DNA of 64,000 nucleotides. Source: a virus (lineage: Duplodnaviria > Caudoviricetes). Position numbers and translations under genes: made by a program. Every line of letters begins with the position of its first letter. The stretch's first letter is position 1. The notes beneath the pieces are model-generated. The model worked only from the letters and a program-made list of their open reading frames with translations. It did not search any database and was not told the DNA's origin. Shown here piece after piece: positions 1-29,988 of the stretch. Where the stretch lies: positions 1 through 64,000 of the IMG/VR virus record IMGVR_UViG_3300016667_000797; one strand, 5' to 3'.

Positions 1-79
1 GGGTTGCGTCTTGCCCGAGAGTGGAACACCAAACCGCCCTGGCCCGCCTGGGATGACATTCAAGCAAGGAGAGACGGTT

Positions 80-8395: not shown

Positions 8396-10621
8396 GTGAG
8401 TCTCCTAGACATCCATGCTGGGCTAACGTACGCGGCGATCGCTCCCGTCCTGAGGTTGGAACCAGTCACGAAATACGCCGTTTTGGCGAAGTGTCCTTAC
8501 TGCGAGGCGCACGCGTGGACCATTCACCAGGATACCAGAAACCTGGAGGAGTGGCATTATTGTTCCCAGTGTAAGGTCAACGGCAGCGTGCTGGCAATGG
8601 CAGCTGAGCGACTGGAGATGGCACAAGACGATGCGTTACGCTACCTGGCCGACCGGTTGGGAATGACGCTCACGTTTGATCACCTGAAGGCTTATCACAA
8701 AAGCCAGCACTATGCCAAACAGCTGCGCGAGACCTGGCAGCAAGTCCAGAAATCAAACCTCTCGCGCGAAGAATTTCAGTTGCTGCACCAGCTCGGCTGG
8801 CACAACTCGGTACCTGTAAGTCCGGCTCGTTTTGCGGCAGGCATGGGTCAGCTTTACGGCGTGACGAACTCCAGCGTCATTAAAGAACGACTGGACAGCC
8901 ACTATCGCGGCGGGAAAAACCTGACCGCGCTGGTGCCTTACTACAAAGCCATCAACCAGGTTGGTGCGTTCTACGGGCATACCGGAATTCGCGAATACTT
9001 CTTCGCACCACCACACGTTGGAGTCAACGCACACGCCGTGGGTGAGTACGGGTTTGCCGGGTTGCCCTTCCTGCTCCAGTCGCAGTCGAACACGTTGGTG
9101 CTGACAACCATGCTGCATGTCATGATGCAGACGCACGCGCACAACTTTAACTATAACGATACGCCGCTACCGTTGCTTGCCTGGCGGCAACACCAGGCAG
9201 GCGGAGCCGAGCGGCAGTGGTCGTCCCTGGGTGGGCGCGACCTGGTGTTGTGGGAACGTACACCTACAGCAGCCGTACTGCACCAGGCCATACTGTCAGA
9301 CGCCCGACTGTCATTCGTAGGTCCAGAGACAGATCACCAGCAGCCGCAGGAAGTCTCCGGCAAACGCTGGTGGGCTTGGGTGCACGATGACGCTGCCCCT
9401 GTCGTATGTGAGCGCATTGTGCGCTCCTCACGCCCGTACGAGCACGCACTGAAAAACTGGGCAAGAATCTCTGCACCAGCGGACAAAGCCCGGCTGCTTC
9501 AGGACGCCGAACAGTATTCACCTCGCGTGGCTGAACTGGTGCGTTCGGTGGTTGGAACCGCAGCGCGTACCACTGTCGGCATGCGGGTCAATATCCCGGC
9601 CGGAAACTTGCGCGGTGCGGGAGGCAGTCGTACCTACACAGCATTGATTGAACGAGATGGCAAGTGGTTTGATTTGCAGGGAAACATCCGGTTGCCTGCT
9701 ATCCTGCGTATCACGCACACGGTGGTGCGCGCCAATCGAAAGAAAGAACACATTGGCTACCTCGAACACGACGGTCGCCGCTACGAATTTCGCGTACCGG
9801 AGGCCAAGACAACCTGGACGTGGCTGCGTGACTTTGCCCTTGAGAACGGTATTCCGTGGCACGTAGACGCCACGGCAAACAGCAGCTTTTGTCCGTTCGA
9901 CGCGGCTTGCCGGTTACAACCCCCTGAGTTGACCGTAGGGAAGGATCAAATTGGCTGGGATGGTACTGGTTTCCAGTTCCGCAACGCTTTCCTGGTCGAC
10001 GGCGTATTCACGCAAATTCCGGATTTTATACTGCCTGACGACGTACCTGGACCAAAACAACACTTTGCCAAACTGCATGACGACGTCAAGGAAGCGCTGA
10101 CACGTGAAGGGCCAGAGATGAAAATCATGTGGTCCTTCGCAATGGCGCTCTGTGCTCAGGTCACTGCGCCAGTGCTGGACATGGAGCCGCTGAGCATCGG
10201 GCTGAAGTATCCCAAGAACGACCTGTTCCTGGGTGCGCTTTACAGCCGATTCGGCATCACCCGTAATGACTACCGCGACTGGCCGCACCGCTGGCCGCGC
10301 TGGCTGGAATCTTACAACAAGGCGGTAACCCTGGATGATACCGGATTCTTCGTGGCTCGCTTGGCGCTCGACTCCAAGCCCAAGCGGTACGGCTCGATGG
10401 TGCTGGACCTGGGAGACGAAGAACTGGCACCGCGGGCCATCACGCACAGCGCCGACAAGGTGGTGCTGAATTACCTAAGGGAATTCAGCACCAACCTGCC
10501 GACGACCCCAGTAAACTGGCACACCTGGCTGGACGAAACATCCCGCCGAATGCGCAAGCTCTTTCCCTGGGTGCGAACGACTGCATTGCGCGAGGCCCGC
10601 CAACGGATCATCCTGCCTTAG
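8396..10621 (+). CDS. large protein with N-terminal CHC2 primase-type zinc finger (degenerate primase-like)
   Basis: KCPYCEAHAWTIHQD..WHYCSQCKVNGSVLAMAAERLEM...DALRYL resembles the DnaG Zn-binding domain; no intact TOPRIM EGxxD seen; GTG start at 8396 with an AAGGA SD. Confidence 0.65.
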   Translation: MSLLDIHAGLTYAAIAPVLRLEPVTKYAVLAKCPYCEAHAWTIHQDTRNLEEWHYCSQCKVNGSVLAMAAERLEMAQDDALRYLADRLGMTLTFDHLKAYHKSQHYAKQLRETWQQVQKSNLSREEFQLLHQLGWHNSVPVSPARFAAGMGQLYGVTNSSVIKERLDSHYRGGKNLTALVPYYKAINQVGAFYGHTGIREYFFAPPHVGVNAHAVGEYGFAGLPFLLQSQSNTLVLTTMLHVMMQTHAHNFNYNDTPLPLLAWRQHQAGGAERQWSSLGGRDLVLWERTPTAAVLHQAILSDARLSFVGPETDHQQPQEVSGKRWWAWVHDDAAPVVCERIVRSSRPYEHALKNWARISAPADKARLLQDAEQYSPRVAELVRSVVGTAARTTVGMRVNIPAGNLRGAGGSRTYTALIERDGKWFDLQGNIRLPAILRITHTVVRANRKKEHIGYLEHDGRRYEFRVPEAKTTWTWLRDFALENGIPWHVDATANSSFCPFDAACRLQPPELTVGKDQIGWDGTGFQFRNAFLVDGVFTQIPDFILPDDVPGPKQHFAKLHDDVKEALTREGPEMKIMWSFAMALCAQVTAPVLDMEPLSIGLKYPKNDLFLGALYSRFGITRNDYRDWPHRWPRWLESYNKAVTLDDTGFFVARLALDSKPKRYGSMVLDLGDEELAPRAITHSADKVVLNYLREFSTNLPTTPVNWHTWLDETSRRMRKLFPWVRTTALREARQRIILP

Positions 10622-12582
10622 AACCAGTCGTTGGGGTTGACGCCTCTCGCCGACTGTGCCGCATCGGCGTCGATCTCCACGTCTTCGTAAGCCGCCATGT
10701 CCGGCCAGGAGCCGTGCATCTGGAAGAGCATCATGGTGCCCATGGTCACGGCCTGCGCAAAGTCATCCGGACCGGACGGATCGCGAAGGATCTTATACTT
10801 GTCTTTGGTGAACCCCGTCTCCCGCTTGTCTTCGATCAGGTTCAGAAAGTCGTGCAGCAGCCCCGGGTCTTCCGAGCCTTTGTAATCGTACTGGAAGAAC
10901 CGGACGATGCCGCTCTTGATGAACTGACAGCAATACGACAAGGCCCGGTTCCGGTCCATTGTGTAGTGGTTTCGAGGGTGTATACGGGTCGCGGGCTTGA
11001 ACGTGATCAGGTTGCCCTTGGCCGGTCCAATGTAGGAGACCGGCAGGATGTTGTTCAGGCTCAGTCCCGACTGCGTCAGCAAGGTTTCCCGCACCGTACC
11101 GGCACCGGTGTAGTCGTGCACGACGTGACTGCACCGAAAGGTGCTCATGATCCCCAGGATCAGCTTGGCCTCACGCACGTGCTCGTGCGGAGTCATGCTG
11201 CGGAAACCGTAGATCACATCCACCTGTCCGTTGGGAAGCATGCCGCACACGGCGATGGACGTGTAGGATTGGAGCGCCAGGTCACTCCGCCCCTTGCTGA
11301 CCCCACCACCGCCCCAGTCGACGGCCACGAACCGGTAGGTGTACCGTTCAATGTACGGCTTGGCTTCGTCCAGCCGATTCTGCCATGGCAGACAGGCGGC
11401 CCGCTTCAGGTCGGTGACGGAGACGAGCTTCGTGCCCGAGTCCCAGCTCTCGCCGCAAACTTCGTTGTAGAAGACGTGGACCGGCGTGTTGCCCTTGCCG
11501 TTCATCTTGTCTACGAGCTTCTGCCACTTTTCCACGCTGGCATAGTGCATCGGCATGATGATCTGCGGCACGTGGTATCCGGCAAACGACCAGCGACGTT
11601 CCGCGTGGCGATGCACCCAGCGGCCCGTGCCGCCCTGTGAGGGTGGCCTGGGGTTGATGGCTCTGGCGCACTTGGCGCAGATCACGCCGGGACAAGTGTT
11701 GTTGATTCCCTCATGCACCGGCCCAATCATCTTCAGCAGGTCAAACTCTAGAGATGGGATGTTCCAGTGACCGCAGCCCGGATGGTGGCACCGGATCACC
11801 CACTCGGCCATCGACGAGTCCGTCCAGAGTCGCTCAATCGTATTGTCGAGTGTCTTGGGTGTCCCGGCGTACTGGATGATGCCCCAGTCCCGCGACGCCG
11901 AGATGGTTTCATGGATGATCGGCAGGAACGCGATGTCCATGTCCTGAATTTCGTCGATCACATTCTTGTCGGCTGAGATACCCCGTGTCCGCTCGGCGTC
12001 GAGGTAGGCGAAGCTGAAGATCATTTGCGACCGGTTCTTGAAGCTCCGCTGCAGGACGTTGTTGGTGGTGGTCGTACCACTGAACAGCCGCGCCACCGGG
12101 CTGGTCTCGATAAACGGCGCGACGTAGTTCTGCGAGAAACGCCGGATCATTTCAAACAGCGGCGTCAGGTAGAGCGTCGAGAAGTAGGGGATGCAATTTG
12201 AAAACAACACACCCTGGGCAGCCAGGGAGGTTGACTTGGAGACCTGCCGACCGGTCTTCAGGATTGTCTTGGTCGGCATTCGCGTGCGAAAGAAAGGAGC
12301 GAACGGAAAGTGATCCGTCAGGTGATACGGTTTACCGCGGATCGACAGCAGCAACGGTAGTAGCGGTTTCAATGTCAGGTTGCCTGACTGCCGCATGATG
12401 TGTTGCGCCACGTGCAGTCGCTGAATGATCGGGTCTGCCGACTTTGACGGCCGGTACCCGCCCATCAGTGGCGAGCTCAACATGTCGCTCAAGTCCACGT
12501 CAAACGGACTGGCACCGTCGTTCTCCTCGGCGAGAACCTGGCTGGCCGTTTTACGTGAATTCAACAGGTCCTGGTAATCCAT
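10618..12582 (-). CDS. terL: terminase large subunit (GpA-like)
   Basis: KTGRQVSKST Walker A-like, VIDEIQD Walker B, GTPKT motif III, CxxxxCGHW Zn element, VAVDWGGG and DDFAQA nuclease acidic residues. Confidence 0.9.
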   Translation of the reverse strand: MDYQDLLNSRKTASQVLAEENDGASPFDVDLSDMLSSPLMGGYRPSKSADPIIQRLHVAQHIMRQSGNLTLKPLLPLLLSIRGKPYHLTDHFPFAPFFRTRMPTKTILKTGRQVSKSTSLAAQGVLFSNCIPYFSTLYLTPLFEMIRRFSQNYVAPFIETSPVARLFSGTTTTNNVLQRSFKNRSQMIFSFAYLDAERTRGISADKNVIDEIQDMDIAFLPIIHETISASRDWGIIQYAGTPKTLDNTIERLWTDSSMAEWVIRCHHPGCGHWNIPSLEFDLLKMIGPVHEGINNTCPGVICAKCARAINPRPPSQGGTGRWVHRHAERRWSFAGYHVPQIIMPMHYASVEKWQKLVDKMNGKGNTPVHVFYNEVCGESWDSGTKLVSVTDLKRAACLPWQNRLDEAKPYIERYTYRFVAVDWGGGGVSKGRSDLALQSYTSIAVCGMLPNGQVDVIYGFRSMTPHEHVREAKLILGIMSTFRCSHVVHDYTGAGTVRETLLTQSGLSLNNILPVSYIGPAKGNLITFKPATRIHPRNHYTMDRNRALSYCCQFIKSGIVRFFQYDYKGSEDPGLLHDFLNLIEDKRETGFTKDKYKILRDPSGPDDFAQAVTMGTMMLFQMHGSWPDMAAYEDVEIDADAAQSARGVNPNDWF

Positions 12583-18637: not shown

Positions 18638-19276
18638 ATGTCACACCCATACCATCATGCTCTCAGTAGCGTCAAGAAATACGGCGGCAAAGTATCAGAC
18701 TACATGCGCATCCACCAATTCTTCGACGAAAGTAAGGAACACTTCGCTGACTTCCGGCACCGCGCCTTGCGCCACCACAGCGAGGGCATCTTCCTGGCCG
18801 AACGCATGTTCGGCACCACGATCACCAACAGCGACGGCCGAGTAATCCCGGTGCGGTTCATCGGCGAGCAGCACGTCATCGAGGATTGCGGTTTCATCCC
18901 GACGCTGGCGGACTGGCTCAAGTGCATCCAGGCTGAGCCCTGGATGAAGCGCGTCGGCGTCAAGCTGGGTCAGGAGCAACCGGAGCCAAAACCGGCTGAC
19001 GAGGATCCGGAGTCTGTCCTTGTAGAGAAAATGTTTTCAGAATCGGCGCAACGTAAACAACTTGTGCGCGAATGTCCTGAACGAGCAAGTCTTAGAGATT
19101 TAGGTATCTCAGTTCGGGCAAGGAATGTGTTGCACAAACACGAAATTGAGACCGTAGCCCAATTGATGACGCACACGCCAAAAAGCCTACGACAATACCG
19201 TGGCCTTGGTTATGACTCCCTAAAAGATATTGTCGACGCGTTGGCACGGTTCGGGCACGCGTTGGCTGTTGAATAA
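18638..19276 (+). CDS. DUF6915-like domain fused to an RNA polymerase alpha-CTD-like domain
   Basis: N-term SHPYHHALSSVKKYGG...HRALRHHSEGIF...EQHVIEDCG; C-term LRDLGISVRARNVLHKHEIETVAQL...RGLGYDSLKDI. Confidence 0.75.
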   Translation: MSHPYHHALSSVKKYGGKVSDYMRIHQFFDESKEHFADFRHRALRHHSEGIFLAERMFGTTITNSDGRVIPVRFIGEQHVIEDCGFIPTLADWLKCIQAEPWMKRVGVKLGQEQPEPKPADEDPESVLVEKMFSESAQRKQLVRECPERASLRDLGISVRARNVLHKHEIETVAQLMTHTPKSLRQYRGLGYDSLKDIVDALARFGHALAVE

Positions 19277-19941: not shown

Positions 19942-20922
19942 ATGGCAGAAATCAGCCAACTGAGAGACAAGATCGAAAGCCTGAAGGTGGCCGAAGCCAT
20001 CCTGCTGGAAGCCGGAATTCAGGACACCTCACTCCGGGCGATCGAGAAGGTGGTCGGCAACCTGGAGAGCCAGATCCGCTCGACGCTACCGCGTGAGCTG
20101 CTGGAACAGCAAAACGCCGACCTGACCAATGCCAACATCCAGCTGAAGCTGGAGCTGGACGGCCGCACCCGACAGATGAACCGAATCATCGCGGACCTCA
20201 AACTCGAGCTGAGCCAGCGTCCGCCCGTGTACGCCATCCACTGTCCCGATAAATGCGAATGGCTGCATGGTCCGTATGGAGAGATACCGGTCTTTCTTAC
20301 AACAGACTTGGCCCAGGAATTCATGGTGTCTCGCGGCCTGTCGTCGATCTGGCGCGTGACCCAGTACTTCACGGCCCCCATTGAAGACCCCCGAGAGCTG
20401 ACCATTGCCGATTTCTTCGGCAAGCACAAAGCCTATGGTCGCGTCCAGGACTGGGCACTGGCCAACTGCAAAGACATGCAAGAATGCTGGGACAAGCTGC
20501 CGGACGGCGATCTGATCTGGATTGCCGGGTTTGCCGACGTGTTGACTGACAGAACGCAGCGGCTATTTGCTGTGGCCTGTTGTCGTGAGGCCTACCACCT
20601 GCTGGAAGATCAGCGCAGCCGCGATGCGCTGTACGTGGCAGAGTCTTACGCCCTGGGTCAGTCCGATAGTATCGAACTGTACAAAGCGTGGAACGAATCG
20701 CAGGCGGTTGGAAATCACTGGAAGAACGGAACGGCAAAAGATCTGGCGGCTACGGCGGCCGCCTTTGCGGCAAGCGCGGATCCGTTGCAAGCAGCAAGGG
20801 AAGCCTCAAATTACGCGATCAAGGCGTTGGCTGCGGCCTCGCCGGGCTGCGAAGCTGAGGTACAGGCAGCGCAAGCCAGGTGGCTGCGCGACAACTGTAA
20901 ACCCAACTTCAAAGGATGGTGA
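19942..20922 (+). CDS. coiled-coil protein with RLFAVACCR helical domain
   Basis: TQRLFAVACCREAYHLLEDQRSRDALYVAESYALG, similar to a family I recall being expanded in planctomycetes. Confidence 0.65.
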   Translation: MAEISQLRDKIESLKVAEAILLEAGIQDTSLRAIEKVVGNLESQIRSTLPRELLEQQNADLTNANIQLKLELDGRTRQMNRIIADLKLELSQRPPVYAIHCPDKCEWLHGPYGEIPVFLTTDLAQEFMVSRGLSSIWRVTQYFTAPIEDPRELTIADFFGKHKAYGRVQDWALANCKDMQECWDKLPDGDLIWIAGFADVLTDRTQRLFAVACCREAYHLLEDQRSRDALYVAESYALGQSDSIELYKAWNESQAVGNHWKNGTAKDLAATAAAFAASADPLQAAREASNYAIKALAAASPGCEAEVQAAQARWLRDNCKPNFKGW

Positions 20923-24242: not shown

Positions 24243-24799
24243 TTACCGAACGTATGCTGCTCGACGAGCAGGAGCACTGGCGAACCTATTACCGTAACGC
24301 TTATCCGGTAAATCCGTTGTCTCATGACCCGTACGCGTCTCCTGAATCCGACCCGGTACAGAACGCAATCTACAGTGAGCTGGGCGATCGCATTTGCCAG
24401 GCTTACCTGCGATTTGATTTGCTGGACCGTAAGATAGCTCAAGGTCATCTGTGCGACGGCTTGAGCTATGACACGCTTACAGCGAAGTACGGCGTATCGA
24501 AAGAGTACATCCAGGTCATGCTGCATGACTTGCACGACCAAATTCACCAGATGCGTGGGTTTGGTCTGTATGTCGTCTCAATCTCCGAGTGGTTTCCCTC
24601 GCTAAGAGGTTATTACGCACTGGTAATGGAGGAACACACAGATGATCGCGGGCGAAACAAGGCGTACCGTTGTACCTCTGACGCCCGAACAGCAGGCGCT
24701 CGTGTCACAAAACATGAGGCTGGTACCATGGTTCATGAAGCTCCATGGAATACCATTCGGGATGAGTTATTCCGATTACATGAGCTGCCTGTATCTTGA
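24239..24799 (+). CDS. sigma-region-4-like HTH protein
   Basis: LDRKIAQGHLCDGLSYDTLTAKYGVSKEYI resembles a sigma4/HTH. Confidence 0.45.
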   Translation: MITERMLLDEQEHWRTYYRNAYPVNPLSHDPYASPESDPVQNAIYSELGDRICQAYLRFDLLDRKIAQGHLCDGLSYDTLTAKYGVSKEYIQVMLHDLHDQIHQMRGFGLYVVSISEWFPSLRGYYALVMEEHTDDRGRNKAYRCTSDARTAGARVTKHEAGTMVHEAPWNTIRDELFRLHELPVS

Positions 24800-25475
24800 A
24801 ATGTGCATAGTGACGCCCAAGCACGATGCCACTTTGGGCCGTTACAGCACTTTTATCATTGCCTGCCTCTGGCGCGCCCGCTGGCGTATCTTACGCAAGC
24901 TGGAGGCGCGACCGCGACCAGAGTCGTTGGATGCACATCTGGACGACCTGCTTCCCGGCGAAATGGATCAAGCTCTGGTAACGCCCGCGGTGGATTACTT
25001 GAGCAAAGTCTGTGATGCCGAGTTCTTGATCAACATCCGGTCGCTTGTCCGCGAACGTCACTGGAAGTTCTTCTGGGCTTACTATGCCGAAGACAAAACG
25101 CTCCAAGAAATTGGCGATATGCACAGGCTAACCCGAGAACGCATTCGCCAACTGGCAACAAAAACATTCGAGCGGGCCCAACACTGGGGTTATCTGTTCG
25201 AAACCTACGGCATATTGGCCTTGAGTACGATCAAGCGCAAACGTACCAGCCAAACCAAACAACCTAAACCTACCAAAACGCAGGTGCTGGACGAACCTGA
25301 TCAACCCACAAAGAAACCTAGGCAAATGCACATCTGGGCCGACTATGCGGCCAGTGAGCTGAAACCTCAAACGGAGGAATCCAAACATGAGTGCTACATC
25401 GACACAAGCGTCCACCAGCGCCGCTTTAGAATCGCTGGAACAGTGCCTGTACGGACACATCAGCAACGTCGCTGA
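24642..25475 (+). CDS. sigma70-family RNA polymerase sigma factor (regions 2 and 4)
   Basis: LTPEQQALVSQNMRLVPWF, HDATLGRYSTFI (region 2); EDKTLQEIGDMHRLTRERIRQL (region 4.2); GGAGGA SD. Confidence 0.75.
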   Translation: MIAGETRRTVVPLTPEQQALVSQNMRLVPWFMKLHGIPFGMSYSDYMSCLYLEMCIVTPKHDATLGRYSTFIIACLWRARWRILRKLEARPRPESLDAHLDDLLPGEMDQALVTPAVDYLSKVCDAEFLINIRSLVRERHWKFFWAYYAEDKTLQEIGDMHRLTRERIRQLATKTFERAQHWGYLFETYGILALSTIKRKRTSQTKQPKPTKTQVLDEPDQPTKKPRQMHIWADYAASELKPQTEESKHECYIDTSVHQRRFRIAGTVPVRTHQQRR

Positions 25476-26061
25476 TCGTTGGCGCTGGAGGCTCTACCTG
25501 ACCGAGCAGGGCAGTATGCGCCTGGCCTCGATCGCGGGCTACATTCAAGCCCTGATACATGCCAGACAGGAAGAGTTTGCCGAGAAGATGTGGGCGGACT
25601 TGCAGGACAAACTGGACTGGCTGACACAACATGAGCAGCGGGTCGAGTATCCGGTGGCCGAAGGTGTGTCGCTCCAGATACCAGCACGCAAGGTCATCCT
25701 CTCCGACGATGGCACGCTGCATGGCTTCGGCTTTCAGATCTACCGACCAGTGGACTGGCAGGTTTACAGCGATGCGCTGACCCGTCACGAGGCTGCAATT
25801 GAGGAAGAGCGAAAGCAAGGCAAAACAACCTACGACACCGCCCACAAACGCGCTGTCCAGGAATTGCGAATCCGCGAGACTATGGACAGCTCGGCACCCC
25901 ACTCGTCCGAGTTGAGCGAGCGGCGTTACGCCAACGATCGGTTCTACATGATTCACTACGTGCCCTGGTATTACGGCGGCCTGATCTATCACGGACCAGG
26001 CGCCGGGCAGACGTTTACGGTGTCGCTTGACACCCGTCACTTCTGGGGCATTCATACCTGA
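25387..26061 (+). CDS. hypothetical protein
   Basis: GGAGG SD; C-terminal YYGGLIYHGPG...WGIHT. Confidence 0.65.
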   Translation: MSATSTQASTSAALESLEQCLYGHISNVADRWRWRLYLTEQGSMRLASIAGYIQALIHARQEEFAEKMWADLQDKLDWLTQHEQRVEYPVAEGVSLQIPARKVILSDDGTLHGFGFQIYRPVDWQVYSDALTRHEAAIEEERKQGKTTYDTAHKRAVQELRIRETMDSSAPHSSELSERRYANDRFYMIHYVPWYYGGLIYHGPGAGQTFTVSLDTRHFWGIHT

Positions 26062-26088
26062 TCTTGGAATAGCAACCTGAATAACTCG

Positions 26089-26117
26089 CCCGCCAGGCAA
26101 CTGGCGGGTTTTTCTTT
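26089..26117 (+). terminator. intrinsic terminator
   Basis: cccgccag-gcaa-ctggcggg then TTTTTCTTT. Confidence 0.85.
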
Positions 26118-26149
26118 GTCCCGATTCAACTCGTGAATAGGAATTGACC

Positions 26150-26626
26150 ATGGGTTACACCCACTACTTCAGTACCAAGAAGGGCAGACGGCTGAACCCT
26201 TATCTCTGGAAGCAGGCGTTTGTGCCGCTGGTCCGCAAGATCTTCGCCTTGGCAGAAGAGTGCGGCATTGAGTTGCAACAAACCTGCAGTGAAGGCATCA
26301 CCAGCTATACGCCCGAGCGACTGGTACCACTGGCGACCAACACCCAGGTTCGGTTCAACGGCAAAGAGTCCTGCGAAGACTTTCTGCTGTTCCTCGACAC
26401 CCTGCTGCGCAACAGCAGTTGGTTCTGCAAGACAAACCGGCTACCGTACGACACTGTCGTCGTGGCCGTACTGATCGCCGCGGAGCATGTCTTCGGCGCC
26501 AACTTCGAATGGAGCAGCGACGGGACTGACGACGACCACGCAGCCGGGCGAGCGCTTTGCGACGCGGCCATGCAGCGTCTCACGTTCCCCCGACGCAAAC
26601 ACAAACCGCTAAAACTTGACGTGTAA
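26150..26626 (+). CDS. conserved phage hypothetical protein
   Basis: MGYTHY...FCKTNRLPYDTVVVAVLI...WSSDG. Confidence 0.65.
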   Translation: MGYTHYFSTKKGRRLNPYLWKQAFVPLVRKIFALAEECGIELQQTCSEGITSYTPERLVPLATNTQVRFNGKESCEDFLLFLDTLLRNSSWFCKTNRLPYDTVVVAVLIAAEHVFGANFEWSSDGTDDDHAAGRALCDAAMQRLTFPRRKHKPLKLDV

Positions 26627-26678
26627 GCCTTCCACGCCGCGCGCAGCTTGTTATTATGCTTGACATACACAGGCTCGC

Positions 26679-27008
26679 ATGGTGGGAGAACACGCAGGCA
26701 TGGAAATGCACGGAGGCCCTGAACGGCGCAAGAGGCGCTGCAAGCCCGAACCTTACTGGGTGAAGTTCTTCACTGAGGAAGATCGGGAAAAGAAAAGGGT
26801 CGCGCACTGGAACACCGTGTCGCTGGCCGATGTCGGCATTCCGGTCCGGCTGGCCAACACGCTTGAGCAATATGGCATCCTTACAGTCGGCGATCTGACC
26901 AGGCTCACGCTTGCCGACCTGGAAGAGATACCCAACCTGGGTGAGATCACCCGGGTCAGGTGCAGCCAACTCTTGGACCAGCTCAAGCTGCCCAACCACC
27001 TAAAATGA
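26679..27008 (+). CDS. stand-alone RNA polymerase alpha-CTD-like protein
   Basis: SLADVGIPVRLANTLEQYGILTVGDL...LEEIPNLGEIT. Confidence 0.8.
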   Translation: MVGEHAGMEMHGGPERRKRRCKPEPYWVKFFTEEDREKKRVAHWNTVSLADVGIPVRLANTLEQYGILTVGDLTRLTLADLEEIPNLGEITRVRCSQLLDQLKLPNHLK

Positions 27009-27017
27009 GTAGATGTA

Positions 27018-27115
27018 ACGCATAAAAATATTATGCGTATCTTCTCCTATGGAGAAGATGTAAAACAAGCGTGCCATATGGCACGCTTGTTGGCTTTACA
27101 GGTTGAATAGAAAAA
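27018..27115. repeat. left copy of an inverted triple-hairpin element
   Basis: Three abutting hairpins: 27018-27038, 27039-27059 and the 28-bp perfect palindrome 27064-27091. Confidence 0.85.
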
Positions 27116-27119
27116 GGAG

Positions 27120-27359
27120 TTGCGGATGTATCTGCGTGTCGTCAGTGATTTCGTCAAAAACCAGTACGGGAGCTCGTATCCTGTAGCCAACATCCAGGTC
27201 ATCAATGGAGATACCGGAGATCTGGTTGCAGATGTCTGTGTAGAGATCTATTACTGCGATAAACCTCGGGTGATCCTAACACCGGCTATAGAGCTTCGGG
27301 AAAGTGAAGAGGCTACCCTCGCTATAGACCTGGTCACAGGGGAGAATATCCCCCTGTAG
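27120..27359 (+). CDS. 79-aa hypothetical protein enclosed by the inverted repeats
   Basis: AAAGGAG SD before a TTG start. Confidence 0.5.
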   Translation: MRMYLRVVSDFVKNQYGSSYPVANIQVINGDTGDLVADVCVEIYYCDKPRVILTPAIELRESEEATLAIDLVTGENIPL

Positions 27360-27454
27360 AGGTAAACTATAGTTGTCGTAGGGCGGAAGACCTGCTTCTC
27401 CATTCGTGAACAGGTACTTGCCGCCCTTCCCTCTACCTGAGTCTCTATCGGCAT

Positions 27455-27550
27455 TTTTTCTATACTAAACCCTGCTAAAACAACAAGGCGTCAAACGCCT
27501 TGTTTTACATCTTCTCCATAGGAGAAGATACTCATAAAAATATTATGAGT
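27455..27550. repeat. right (inverted) copy of the triple-hairpin element
   Basis: 27499-27531 is the exact reverse complement of 27037-27069 (33 bp); hairpins at 27482-27504, 27509-27529 and 27530-27550. Confidence 0.85.
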
Positions 27551-27669
27551 TACGGTAAACTTGTAAATTTATATGGTGTAGTGACTTATTGCAATTTTGT
27601 TGCTCATGCCATAATTTGCGGTAAATTACCTGCTGCACCCTTCTCTGCCGGACAAACTCGGAGGTTACT

Positions 27670-28554
27670 ATGGATCCAAATCCGGATTTGAGTGAGGCCC
27701 TGTTTGCCTCTGCCTCGGTCGTTCCGAGGCTATCTGCTGTTACCGATAGTCTCGGACTTCGCCTGCTTCGAGCCTGCGTGTTACGTCCCTACTGTCAAGC
27801 TGGCGGCGCAACCGACGTGACGCAGGCGAGTTGGCTGCAACAGCAGCTTCGACAACAGTTCTTCCGCCTGATGCGTCAATACCCTGAAGCTCGGTTGCGA
27901 TACACGTATCAGATGAACTGCCCTCCGGTTGGCCTTCGCATGCGACCTCAATCTCGCGTGTGCAACCATCCGGTTGTTTGTCCTTGGTGTCTGATCCGCA
28001 GACGAGCTCAACCTGCTTATGAGGAACTGATCAACGTACCAACGCTGGTTCGCGAGCCGCTTAAAGTTCTACTTTGGCGGCGAGTGGGTCCATTGAATTC
28101 GCGGTTCATCTTTTTTCCGGTTTACCAGGGGCCGCACACGTTGTGTCGGTCCGCCACCACAATTCAGCTGGGTACCCCAGTGGGAGAGGCTGAGCACCAG
28201 TTGAGCATGCGCGTGACGGGTATCCAACTGGTTCCGAAGGACTTTGATGTAAAATCGGTATTGAGTTGTCCCAGCATACAACCCAAGCTGACGTTGAAGG
28301 AGTATCCCGACGCGGCGGATACCACGATATTTGACGCCGTGGTCCAGGCCTGCGCGTACGACTGTCGCGTCCCGCTGGCCGAAGCCAATCTTGCTACGTT
28401 CCATACACTGGCTCATTACCACAACACCCACGCCAAGACCCGGCTGTACCGGGTCAGCAAATACAAACCCCAAGGAGATCTTGATGGACATCAGCAGCCC
28501 ACCGTATCCGAAGAACAACACCAGTCCTCAGCTGCTCTATCGCTATTTGACTGA
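27670..28554 (+). CDS. hypothetical protein with Cys cluster
   Basis: GGAGGT SD; CNHPVVCPWC. Confidence 0.6.
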   Translation: MDPNPDLSEALFASASVVPRLSAVTDSLGLRLLRACVLRPYCQAGGATDVTQASWLQQQLRQQFFRLMRQYPEARLRYTYQMNCPPVGLRMRPQSRVCNHPVVCPWCLIRRRAQPAYEELINVPTLVREPLKVLLWRRVGPLNSRFIFFPVYQGPHTLCRSATTIQLGTPVGEAEHQLSMRVTGIQLVPKDFDVKSVLSCPSIQPKLTLKEYPDAADTTIFDAVVQACAYDCRVPLAEANLATFHTLAHYHNTHAKTRLYRVSKYKPQGDLDGHQQPTVSEEQHQSSAALSLFD

Positions 28555-29029
28555 ACTGTATGACTGGGCGGCCGAACAACGCGACTGGGCTAATGCGGAG
28601 GCCGAGCGCCTGGGTGCTCCGGAATCCCCGTTTGTACCTCCGCTAGGTCGTCGACCTGCCTCCGATCAGCTGGAGCGGTTTCTAAACCTGGCCGTGCCGG
28701 ACATGTACGCCTCATGGCAAGCGCTTCGGTTTATTCGCGAGCGGCATGATGAGGTTGTGCGCAACTACGAACTGCAAGAAGAGTGGGATTCCAATCCTGC
28801 CATCTATCACCGCATCAACCTGGTCAAGGGTGCGTTGGTAATCCTGGACAATGCGTTTCTTGCCTACGAGCAGCGCGAAGCTCGCACGGCCACCGCCATT
28901 GACCAGAAAAAGAAAGAGATCATGGAACTGCTCAAGACCGTTTTCAAAGACGGCAAGATCAAGTTCTTGGACACCGAAGAGGTTGAAAAGCTCGGCTTAG
29001 ACAACCTGTTTGACGAAGATGATGAGTGA
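28484..29029 (+). CDS. hypothetical protein
   Basis: AAGGAG SD before the ATG at 28484. Confidence 0.6.
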   Translation: MDISSPPYPKNNTSPQLLYRYLTELYDWAAEQRDWANAEAERLGAPESPFVPPLGRRPASDQLERFLNLAVPDMYASWQALRFIRERHDEVVRNYELQEEWDSNPAIYHRINLVKGALVILDNAFLAYEQREARTATAIDQKKKEIMELLKTVFKDGKIKFLDTEEVEKLGLDNLFDEDDE

Positions 29030-29271
29030 GTTTCACAACTATTTGGCATTTAAGGACTTCTAAAAAATCCAAAACGGATTTGTCAGAAGTCCTTATGCCT
29101 TAAATAGTTATTTTGTTCATTGCAACTAAATACGACGTAACGACTTATGGCGCTGCAGAAAAGCTAAACGCCATAAATCGTTATAAACTTAAAGTTTGTG
29201 GCGCTGACTTGTGTCAGAGCTACGTAATCCTACTACACAGCATAGGTTGCGGAAACCCTAAGGAGAATCTC

Positions 29272-29988
29272 ATGCCCAATCATTGTGAATGTCGGTTGAC
29301 GATCGGTGGTCGCGAGTCGGCAGTCCGTAAGGTGCTGAGCCGAATCAAGTCGACCAACGAGAAGGATGAAGTCACGCATTTTGACTGCAATCAGATCATC
29401 CCCATGCCCGAGTCGCTGGAGGGGACAAGTGCCGGTCCGTGCGAGCAGACGCATGAGGCATTGTTTGGTCAGATCACAGACGCCACGCATTTTACAGAAG
29501 ACCACGACTACGTCTCGGACGCGCTGATCGGTGAGTACCGATTTGAAAACATTCGGGCGTTGAATCATTACGTGACTCGATTCAACATCATCCGCTCTGA
29601 CATGTCTGACGAAGCTCGGATCAGTCAGGTGCGAGCCTGCGAAGAACAGGCCAAGCGCTACGAGTACAACATACAGACGTACGGGTGCCGTACCTGGTAC
29701 GACTGGGCGATTGAAAACTGGGGTACTAAGTGGGGTGCCTATGATGTTTGCGTACCGGAAATCAAGCCACTGTCCAAGGCGGGATGTATCCGGGCCAGTA
29801 TCCGGTTTGATTCGGCCTGGGGTCCGCCGGAGCCGGTGATTCGTCGGATGATCGAGATGTTCCCCAAGTGCCGGGTTACGCTCCGCTACTGGGAGGGCGG
29901 CGCTGGATTTCAGGGCAAAATCTCCGGATACAAGGGCAAAGTGACGGAAGAATATTTGCATGAATATCATGGCCGTCGAGGGGGTTGA
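29272..29988 (+). CDS. YubB/Api92-like ferredoxin-fold protein (DUF1281-like)
   Basis: MPNHC...FDCNQIIPMPESL...WYDWAIENWGTKW...FDSAWGPP...RYWE.G. Confidence 0.75.
   Translation: MPNHCECRLTIGGRESAVRKVLSRIKSTNEKDEVTHFDCNQIIPMPESLEGTSAGPCEQTHEALFGQITDATHFTEDHDYVSDALIGEYRFENIRALNHYVTRFNIIRSDMSDEARISQVRACEEQAKRYEYNIQTYGCRTWYDWAIENWGTKWGAYDVCVPEIKPLSKAGCIRASIRFDSAWGPPEPVIRRMIEMFPKCRVTLRYWEGGAGFQGKISGYKGKVTEEYLHEYHGRRGG

Follow-up and report, generated by a model that had tools for sequence, protein, structure and literature searches.

In the genome of an uncultured freshwater phage with a large double-stranded DNA (dsDNA) genome, a small gene lies between two mirrored arms, each of which consists of three abutting perfect palindromes. 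Our favored reading, to which we give a probability of about 45%, is that this unit is an insulated, exchangeable accessory-gene cassette with boundary modules, resembling a moron or the promoter-early stem-loop (PeSL) motifs of other phages. The unit spans 539 bp and is bracketed by a left arm at 27015–27069 and a right arm at 27499–27553 (neither of which is assigned to a strand) of the sequence that we analyzed, the first 64 kb (hereafter, the window) of the 78,373-bp IMG/VR virus record IMGVR_UViG_3300016667_000797, which is judged to be ~37% complete. It is a real, conserved and unusual-looking structure. Relatives were examined as Logan contigs (k = 31) from four runs of four other studies (X2, X3, X8 and X10), and were compared with the window over 26000–29000; the habitats of these runs are wetland, soil, one unstated and freshwater.

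Anatomy of the mirrored arms and the enclosed gene

The two arms form an inverted repeat in which 55 nt are well conserved (91% identity; E = 1.5e-16 within the record). This is the longest and strongest inverted pair in the window, where no other comparable pair was found. A first-pass annotation made from the sequence had described three hairpins on the left, the same three in mirror order on the right, and an exactly inverted core of 33 bp (27037–27069 and 27499–27531). The core is correct, and all six hairpins are present with perfect stems. In the left arm, h1L (27018–27038, ACGCATAA-AAATA-TTATGCGT) and h2L (27039–27059, ATCTTCTCC-TAT-GGAGAAGAT, whose 5′ arm is rich in pyrimidines and 3′ arm in purines) are 21-bp palindromes, and h3L (27064–27091) is a perfect palindrome of 28 bp. 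In the right arm, h3R (27482–27504, AACAAGGCGT-CAA-ACGCCTTGTT) is followed by TTTTAC, h2R (27509–27529, ATCTTCTCC-ATA-GGAGAAGAT) and h1R (27530–27550, ACTCATAA-AAATA-TTATGAGT). The compensatory stem changes that had been reported are also borne out: one G:C pair of h1L is a T:A pair in h1R, and the upper stem of h3 differs between the arms. The h1 loop AAATA is direct rather than inverted between the two arms, and only the h2 loop (TAT/ATA) is inverted. All 58 stem pairs are Watson-Crick, with no G-U pairs and no bulges.

A gapped alignment extends the repeat inward in degenerate form to ~27115 on the left (27092–27115, TTTACAGG..TTGAATAGAAAAA) and to ~27454 on the right (27454–27498, overlapping the first part of h3R at 27482–27498), which suggests that the inverted duplication covers ~100 nt per side, although 23 of 2000 shuffles scored as well. 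Six of the 38 perfect hairpins (stem of at least 8) in the 78-kb record fall within 533 bp here (Poisson P ~1.3e-7), and folding z-scores range from −7.7 to −12.7. As the first-pass annotation had noted, the region is AT-rich in a GC-rich genome: the GC content is 33%–38% in the arms and 45% in the 539-bp unit, compared with 56% in the record, and when the record is ranked by AT content in 120-nt windows, the arms come first and third. No further copy of h1 or h2 with up to three mismatches was found within the 64 kb, and a search for copies of the element, which had been proposed as a check, found none elsewhere in the record. Beyond the record, a pattern scan for h1 gave 39 matches with unrelated loops and contexts, a number that we estimate to be close to chance; one of these matches (L017) was set aside as an ordinary convergent terminator pair.

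The arms enclose a gene on the plus strand (27126–27359) for an acidic all-beta protein of 77 aa (12 D/E versus 5 K/R), which belongs to a small orphan family. This frame is a real gene. When a second allele was rebuilt from the table of differences in the relatives, only this frame was open, and its three 1-nt gaps total one codon. Three small homologues of 65–75 aa (42%–46% identity) emerged from an exhaustive HMMER search, and an AlphaFold (AF2) model built from the homologue alignment was all-beta, with a confidence score (pLDDT) of 78. The start is most likely the ATG at 27126, behind a Shine-Dalgarno sequence AAGGAG (27114–27119, plus strand), rather than the TTG at 27120 that gave the 79-aa open reading frame (ORF) of the first-pass annotation, because the relatives have GC at 27120–27121, which abolishes the TTG. 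The protein had no match in Pfam, PHROGs, PADLOC or NCBIfam, its model retrieved nothing below E 0.1 from the PDB or BFVD with Foldseek, and it contains no HUH motif. A minus-strand ORF of 67 aa (27251–27454) was taken to be noncoding, as it has no ribosome-binding site and an antisense-like composition. The 3′ untranslated region (UTR) of the gene forms a long hairpin of ~80 nt on the plus strand (27356–27436, GUAGAGG...CCUCUAC around GGGCGG...CCGCCC). This hairpin is nearly invariant in the four relatives despite 18% coding divergence upstream, and has no Rfam match.

The palindromes nearest to the gene have features expected of terminators. h3L and h3R have in common the stem base AACAAG/CTTGTT and the adjoining GTAAAAC/GTTTTAC, and their upper stems differ. 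On the plus strand, h3R comes immediately behind the 3′ UTR of the enclosed gene and has a GC-rich stem (GGCGU-CAA-ACGCC) that runs into UUGUUUUAC. For the stem of h3L (GCGUGCC-AUAU-GGCACGC), the tail on the minus strand is UUGUUUUAC and that on the plus strand is a weaker U-rich run, UUGUUGGCUUUAC; both hairpins have an A-rich run on the opposite side. The RNA folding energy is −21 to −22 kcal/mol for h3L and −13.7 kcal/mol for h3R (z −7.5). Read by eye, the pair appears to have the anatomy of bidirectional intrinsic terminators: h3R is the predicted intrinsic terminator of the enclosed gene and, given its upstream A-tract, may act in both directions. The first-pass annotation overlooked this anatomy, which explains one third of the structure in ordinary terms. 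Ordinary intrinsic terminators occur elsewhere in the record, for example at 26088–26109.

Promoter-like sequences are also present at the right arm. A candidate sigma70-like promoter, TTTACA-17-GATACT (27504–27532, plus strand; 9 of 12 consensus positions), has a spacer that is filled by h2R; its mirror copy in the left arm reads GATACG, and so the final T of the −10 element is missing. An alternative candidate, suggested by its sequence, is the extended −10 element TGcCATAAT (27607–27615, plus strand), which may serve the 294-aa gene to the right of the unit and has TTGCAA (27589–27594) 15 nt upstream. Another promoter-like sequence is buried in a long hairpin outside the unit, at 29037–29109. 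This imperfect palindrome has 34-nt arms (76%) and an inner AATCC-AAAAC-GGATT, lies where the AT content of the record is second highest, and embeds a sigma70-like TTGTCA-17-AATAGT upstream of the gene at 29113–29988.

Mosaic divergence among relatives

The unit is conserved in the contigs of the four other studies. All four runs carry parts of both arms (or arm equivalents) and the inner segment, always in the same position, and none showed an empty site. The contigs break at the arms, and no single contig spans the whole unit; because k = 31 is shorter than the 33-nt core, they break at the exact core, and the orientation of the inner segment is unreadable.

Divergence is distributed unevenly across the region. 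In X2 and X3, the flanks are 99% identical to the window (9–13 differences in 1067–1499 nt), whereas 31 of the ~35 differences in the inner contig fall within 27120–27292, which amounts to 18% divergence over the 5′ two thirds of the enclosed gene. X8 has the same allele of this gene as X2 and X3. The substitutions between the alleles are spread over codon positions 1, 2 and 3 (10, 8 and 11, respectively) and cluster in predicted loops, a pattern that fits a gene in an arms race. X10 shows the reverse: the left flank is 93% identical and the right flank is unalignable over 27551–27906, and the inner 27060–27425 is 98% identical. As the divergence of the enclosed gene is discordant with that of the flanks, the region is mosaic and the gene has its own history.

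The arms of X10 have been rewritten in concert. The 20 nt before 27060 are TCCTCTTTACAAGAGGAGTA, and the 20 nt after 27508 are its exact reverse complement. h2 is thus replaced in both arms by TACTCCTCTT-(TAC/GTA)-AAGAGGAGTA, with the TAC loop in the left arm and GTA in the right. This substitute preserves the design of the original: its stem is perfectly palindromic, its loop has 3 nt, its 5′ arm is rich in pyrimidines, and its position behind TTTTAC has not changed. Because a different palindrome has been installed in both arms, symmetry at this exact position must be under selection or maintained by active homogenization. X10 keeps h1 in the left arm and in the right arm, where 23 of 25 positions match, beside sequence that has otherwise diverged beyond alignment. 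The X10 sample also contains two coexisting right terminator loops at 27482–27504 (CAA and TTTG), which are roughly reverse complements of each other; this pair and the direct h1 loop both fit loop flipping by intrastrand template switching.

Over 27040–27528 in X2, X3 and X8, the k-mer depth of the inner contig and of the 33-nt core is ~0.55–0.6 of that of the flanks, and the depth of the core is twice that of the inner segment; X10 has no deficit. The deficit could reflect polymorphism of the cassette or a library or coverage bias at palindromes, and we did not use it as evidence.

Several searches of other collections gave no match. This was the case for blastn and tblastn against INPHARED; for protein-pattern scans of IMG/VR with the 294-aa protein, the 77-aa protein, the alpha-CTD proteins described below and alignment A2; for pattern scans of IMG/VR for h2 (no exact copy) and the X10-type h2; and for scans of JGI metagenome contigs with alignment A1 and the 28-bp palindrome of h3L.

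The cassette reading and its alternatives

In the reading that we favor, the 539-bp unit would be a self-contained cassette in an early or regulatory region, and its cargo, the 77-aa gene, would be expressed from its own ribosome-binding site and carry a structured 3′ UTR. The h3 hairpin next to the cargo in each arm would be a factor-independent terminator that is usable both ways. Transcription from upstream would stop at h3L and transcription of the cargo would stop at h3R, so that the facing terminators would insulate the cassette from the operons to its left and right. The outer palindromes h1 and h2 would be symmetric DNA sites that are bound by a dimeric protein or extruded as hairpins. 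They probably act at the level of DNA rather than RNA, because all of their stem pairs are Watson-Crick, because their transcript contexts differ (the right copies are downstream of the cargo terminator and the left copies are in a 3′ UTR), and because the replacement in X10 kept exact symmetry. Gene conversion would homogenize the arms, which would serve as conserved linkers where related phages swap cargo. The low GC content of the unit and the discordant divergence in X2, X3 and X10 count in favor of cassette behavior.

Two known arrangements resemble this one. A moron, as found in lambdoid and other tailed phages, is an extra gene that lies between two genes and has its own transcription signals. 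Like a moron, the cargo is a single accessory gene in a co-oriented block, differs from its surroundings in base composition, has a terminator hairpin at its end, and varies among relatives. It differs in having mirrored flanks, which do not define morons, and no promoter that we could find, and four of the four relatives carry the cassette.

PeSLs of T4-like phages are composite terminator/promoter motifs of ~100 bp that flank orphan ORFs, often with the stem-loop between the −35 and −10 elements (Arbiol et al., 2010, PMC2839356). They lie in AT-rich intergenic DNA and have been proposed to be preferred sites for recombination that shuffles the flanked gene; a genome has ~50 of them as direct repeats, and mini-circles are excised when two copies recombine (PMC2839356; Comeau et al., 2014, PMC4122927). 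The unit described here likewise has AT-rich intergenic motifs of ~100 bp, with a terminator-like stem, promoter-like hexamers and h2R between the candidate −35 and −10 elements. It flanks a small orphan gene in a plastic region, and this gene differs between near-identical phages (X2 and X3, with the reverse pattern in X10). However, there are two inverted copies rather than many direct ones, and recombination between them would therefore invert the cargo instead of excising it. In addition, three separate perfect palindromes make up each arm, the presence of a promoter component is doubtful, and PeSLs are described from T4-like phages, a group to which this phage is not assigned. Because membership fails on copy number and orientation, we regard the unit as something that works like a PeSL, not as a PeSL.

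Several observations weigh against the cassette reading. A consensus terminator scan listed neither h3L nor h3R, probably because the scan takes the maximal stem. No promoter was identified for the cargo gene, and the candidate promoter in the right arm is apparently not kept in X10, judging from loose contig ends. The right boundary of the divergent patch in X2 and X3 lies inside the ORF (~27292) rather than at the arm. The module occurs twice, inverted, and nowhere else in 78 kb, unlike PeSLs. Finally, the reading gives h1 and h2 no specific role, and insulation alone does not require a mirror layout.

Operators around a repressor gene provide another precedent for mirrored sites. In the lambda immunity region, the operator triplets OL1–3 and OR1–3 are mirrored around cI-rex; the enclosed repressor binds all six, which are variants of a single 17-bp site, and the operators on both sides change together between heteroimmune phages. 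In the unit, too, a small gene block lies between two sets of palindromic sites, three on each side and in mirror order. The unit differs in that its three palindromes are mutually unrelated, that one of them is a predicted terminator, and that the enclosed gene is unchanged where h2 has changed (X10). The cargo protein, which is acidic and all-beta, is an unlikely DNA binder, unlike the lambda repressor. Paired operators, one of the suggestions of the first-pass annotation, are a possible reading for the two outer palindromes.

The best placed of the other explanations, though we consider it unlikely, is that the unit is an RNA device. The arms would pair in read-through transcripts as a panhandle of ~55 bp, and cleavage by RNase III would free the cargo mRNA; in a variant that shares the same standing, the local hairpins would protect two transcripts from nucleases, the upstream mRNA at its 3′ end and the downstream mRNA at its 5′ end. 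Flanking processing stems are the established maturation route of 16S and 23S rRNA, the minimum-free-energy fold of 27005–27565 pairs the arms end to end (z −12.7), and the local triple hairpins are very stable. On the other hand, a panhandle needs no three perfect internal palindromes per arm, none of the 58 stem pairs is a G-U pair, and h2R and h1R would be transcribed weakly because they lie behind a good predicted terminator. Neither an Rfam family nor, in a tRNA search, a tRNA was found.

We think it improbable that the unit is an invertible segment, in which site-specific or homologous recombination between the 33-bp cores flips 27070–27498 and switches the cargo between sense and antisense with respect to the plus-strand transcription around it. 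The exact inverted cores around a gene-sized segment would suit such a switch, as would the concerted evolution of the arms and the variants in loop orientation (the h1 loop that is direct in both arms and the two right terminator loops in X10). Against it, a predicted terminator bounds the cargo on each side, as would be expected of a cassette that stays fixed; no recombinase domains were found in the neighboring genes; and the families Resolvase (PF00239), Phage_integrase (PF00589) and IS110-type (PF02371) are absent from the 78-kb record. The Y1 HUH transposase family (PF01797, of the IS200/IS605 and REP/RAYT type) is likewise absent from the 78-kb record. As the record is incomplete, the absence of recombinases and transposases is inconclusive.

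There is a similarly small chance that the unit is an ultra-small mobile element with terminal inverted repeats as its boundaries, like an MPME or a miniature inverted-repeat transposable element, and moved in trans by a transposase encoded elsewhere. Its length, terminal inverted repeats, single small ORF and GC content below that of its surroundings would all fit, as would a cargo phylogeny that is discordant with the flanks, and the inner depth in three runs could mean that some genomes lack the element. MPMEs also carry one small ORF. With ~0.44–0.54 kb and inverted-repeat boundaries in a phage genome, the two are alike in scale and layout. According to PMC3029335 (citing Sampson et al., 2009), MPME1 and MPME2 of mycobacteriophages are 439-bp elements bounded by IR-L and IR-R that occupy differing sites in near-identical genomes, with clear empty sites and 6 additional bp at IR-L. 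The unit, by contrast, occupies the same site in all four relatives with no empty site, is present as one copy in 78 kb, and has no target duplication beside GTAAC...GTTAC. No exact copy of h2 was found in viral contigs and no copy of h3L in metagenome contigs, and the cargo is not transposase-like. Its arms are 55–100 nt long and built of internal palindromes, and in X10 they changed while the inner part was kept, the opposite of what is expected of a transposon. The first-pass suggestion of an invertible or mobile cassette is partly supported by the discordance between cargo and flanks, but no empty site, second copy, target duplication or recombinase was found.

The right neighbor raises a further alternative to which we give little weight. 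This plus-strand gene (27670–28554) encodes a protein of 294 aa that belongs to no family and has a cluster of four cysteines (C84, C98, C104 and C107; CNHPVVCPWCLIRRR). Its only homologue (P0001) is 69% identical overall, but the last ~85 residues are nearly identical and the N-terminal region is far more divergent, and so the gene is mosaic. The arms might be hairpin origin or nick sites served by this protein as a divergent Rep_1-like initiator (rolling-circle, HUH-type), with the specificity for h2 co-varying with its N-terminal part. In a protein-language-model atlas, 28 of the 30 nearest named clusters fall in PF01446 Rep_1 sets (20%–41% of members; score 0.93), although the recognition value of 1732 is below the level of reliable matches. 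The C-x5-CPWC-x2-RRR of the protein can be compared with the C-x4-CPxC-xW-R[RK] of the Rep proteins of pC194 and pUB110, and by eye SKY-x4-D near its C terminus resembles the tyrosine motif AKY-x3-D. X10 has both a rewritten h2 and an unalignable 5′ third of the 294-aa gene, and the highest AT content in the record is found in the arms.

Profile tests did not confirm the homology. A Pfam search with the 294-aa protein was empty even at E 10, and PF01446 had no match in the record. A Rep_1 hidden Markov model built from 13 plasmid and phage Reps gave 0.4 bits, which 17 of 1000 shuffles equaled or exceeded, and hhalign returned a probability of 1.6% over 18 columns, covering just the CPxCxxRR motif. 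HxH is missing at the expected position, there is no switch in GC skew at the unit, and the phage has its own replication module (DnaB-like helicase, PolA and SbcCD) 7 kb away. The Rep_1 lead is weak and we did not adopt it, although the atlas result leaves a divergent homology conceivable. A broader version, in which the arms are cis sites for hairpin-dependent nicking, rolling-circle copying or flip-flop inversion by a very divergent Rep_1/HUH-like 294-aa protein, seems to us a slighter prospect still. If it were true, this would be a large dsDNA phage equipped with a Rep-served mini-replicon or with an excisable, copyable gene cassette, with the specificity of the h2 site co-evolving with the N-terminal part of the enzyme.

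Nothing that we tested supports the bidirectional replication origin put forward in the first-pass annotation. An AT-rich element is present, but direct iterons were not found and the searches run on the 78-kb record gave no match to primase- or HUH-type families. GC skew does not switch at 27 kb; between 12 and 40 kb its minimum is at 20.4 kb, on a flat plateau. The analogy with G4 oric that had been drawn concerns single-stranded DNA phages; the present phage has a large dsDNA genome that encodes a terminase, SbcCD, a DnaB-like helicase and PolA. Three other candidates were dropped: an integron attC site (there is no R-box, and three separate perfect hairpins take the place of one imperfect one), an N4-type hairpin promoter (no phage RNA polymerase was found, but the PF00940 search was also blank in control genomes and is thus uninformative), and a protelomerase site (a single palindrome would be expected, not two sites 430 bp apart). 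A role as a target of VIPR was also discarded, as the nearby guides are not directed at the unit.

Genomic neighborhood and implications

The unit lies among genes related to host RNA polymerase. Its left neighbor (26679–27008, plus strand) is a stand-alone gene of 109 aa for a protein resembling the C-terminal domain of the RNA polymerase alpha subunit (alpha-CTD; PF03118, E = 9.2e-10); rpoA equivalogs align with only the C-terminal part of the product, and the stop codon of the gene is 7 nt upstream of the left arm. A second alpha-CTD-like protein, fused to DUF6915, is encoded at 18638–19276, and a protein with sigma70 region 4 at 24642–25475, to the left of the unit. Together, the two alpha-CTD-like proteins and the sigma70 region 4 protein make up a host RNA-polymerase-related set directly upstream of the cassette. 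A 326-aa protein encoded at 19942–20922 has a weak match to an Imm5-like immunity protein (PF21805, E = 2e-5, just below the curated cut-off). Elsewhere, the record encodes a gpA-type large terminase (10618–12582, minus strand), a long co-oriented block of small genes, and a replication and repair module that comprises an SbcD-like phosphoesterase, an SbcC-like ATPase, helicases including a DnaB-like one, and PolA fused to a uracil-DNA glycosylase domain.

None of these findings overturns current understanding. If the cassette reading is correct, however, the unit would be a clean natural case of a fast-evolving phage accessory gene that is packaged as an insulated, exchangeable module, and the PeSL idea, in which regulatory motifs double as recombination linkers, would extend beyond T4-like phages and to a mirror geometry. 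Given the concerted rewriting in X10, the outer palindromes h1 and h2 are good candidates for the targets of an unknown DNA-binding specificity; sigma-like and alpha-CTD-like proteins are encoded next door. The cargo could reasonably be a factor for host takeover or anti-defense: it is an orphan acidic beta protein with hypervariable loops, and its gene adjoins a block of RNA-polymerase-related genes.

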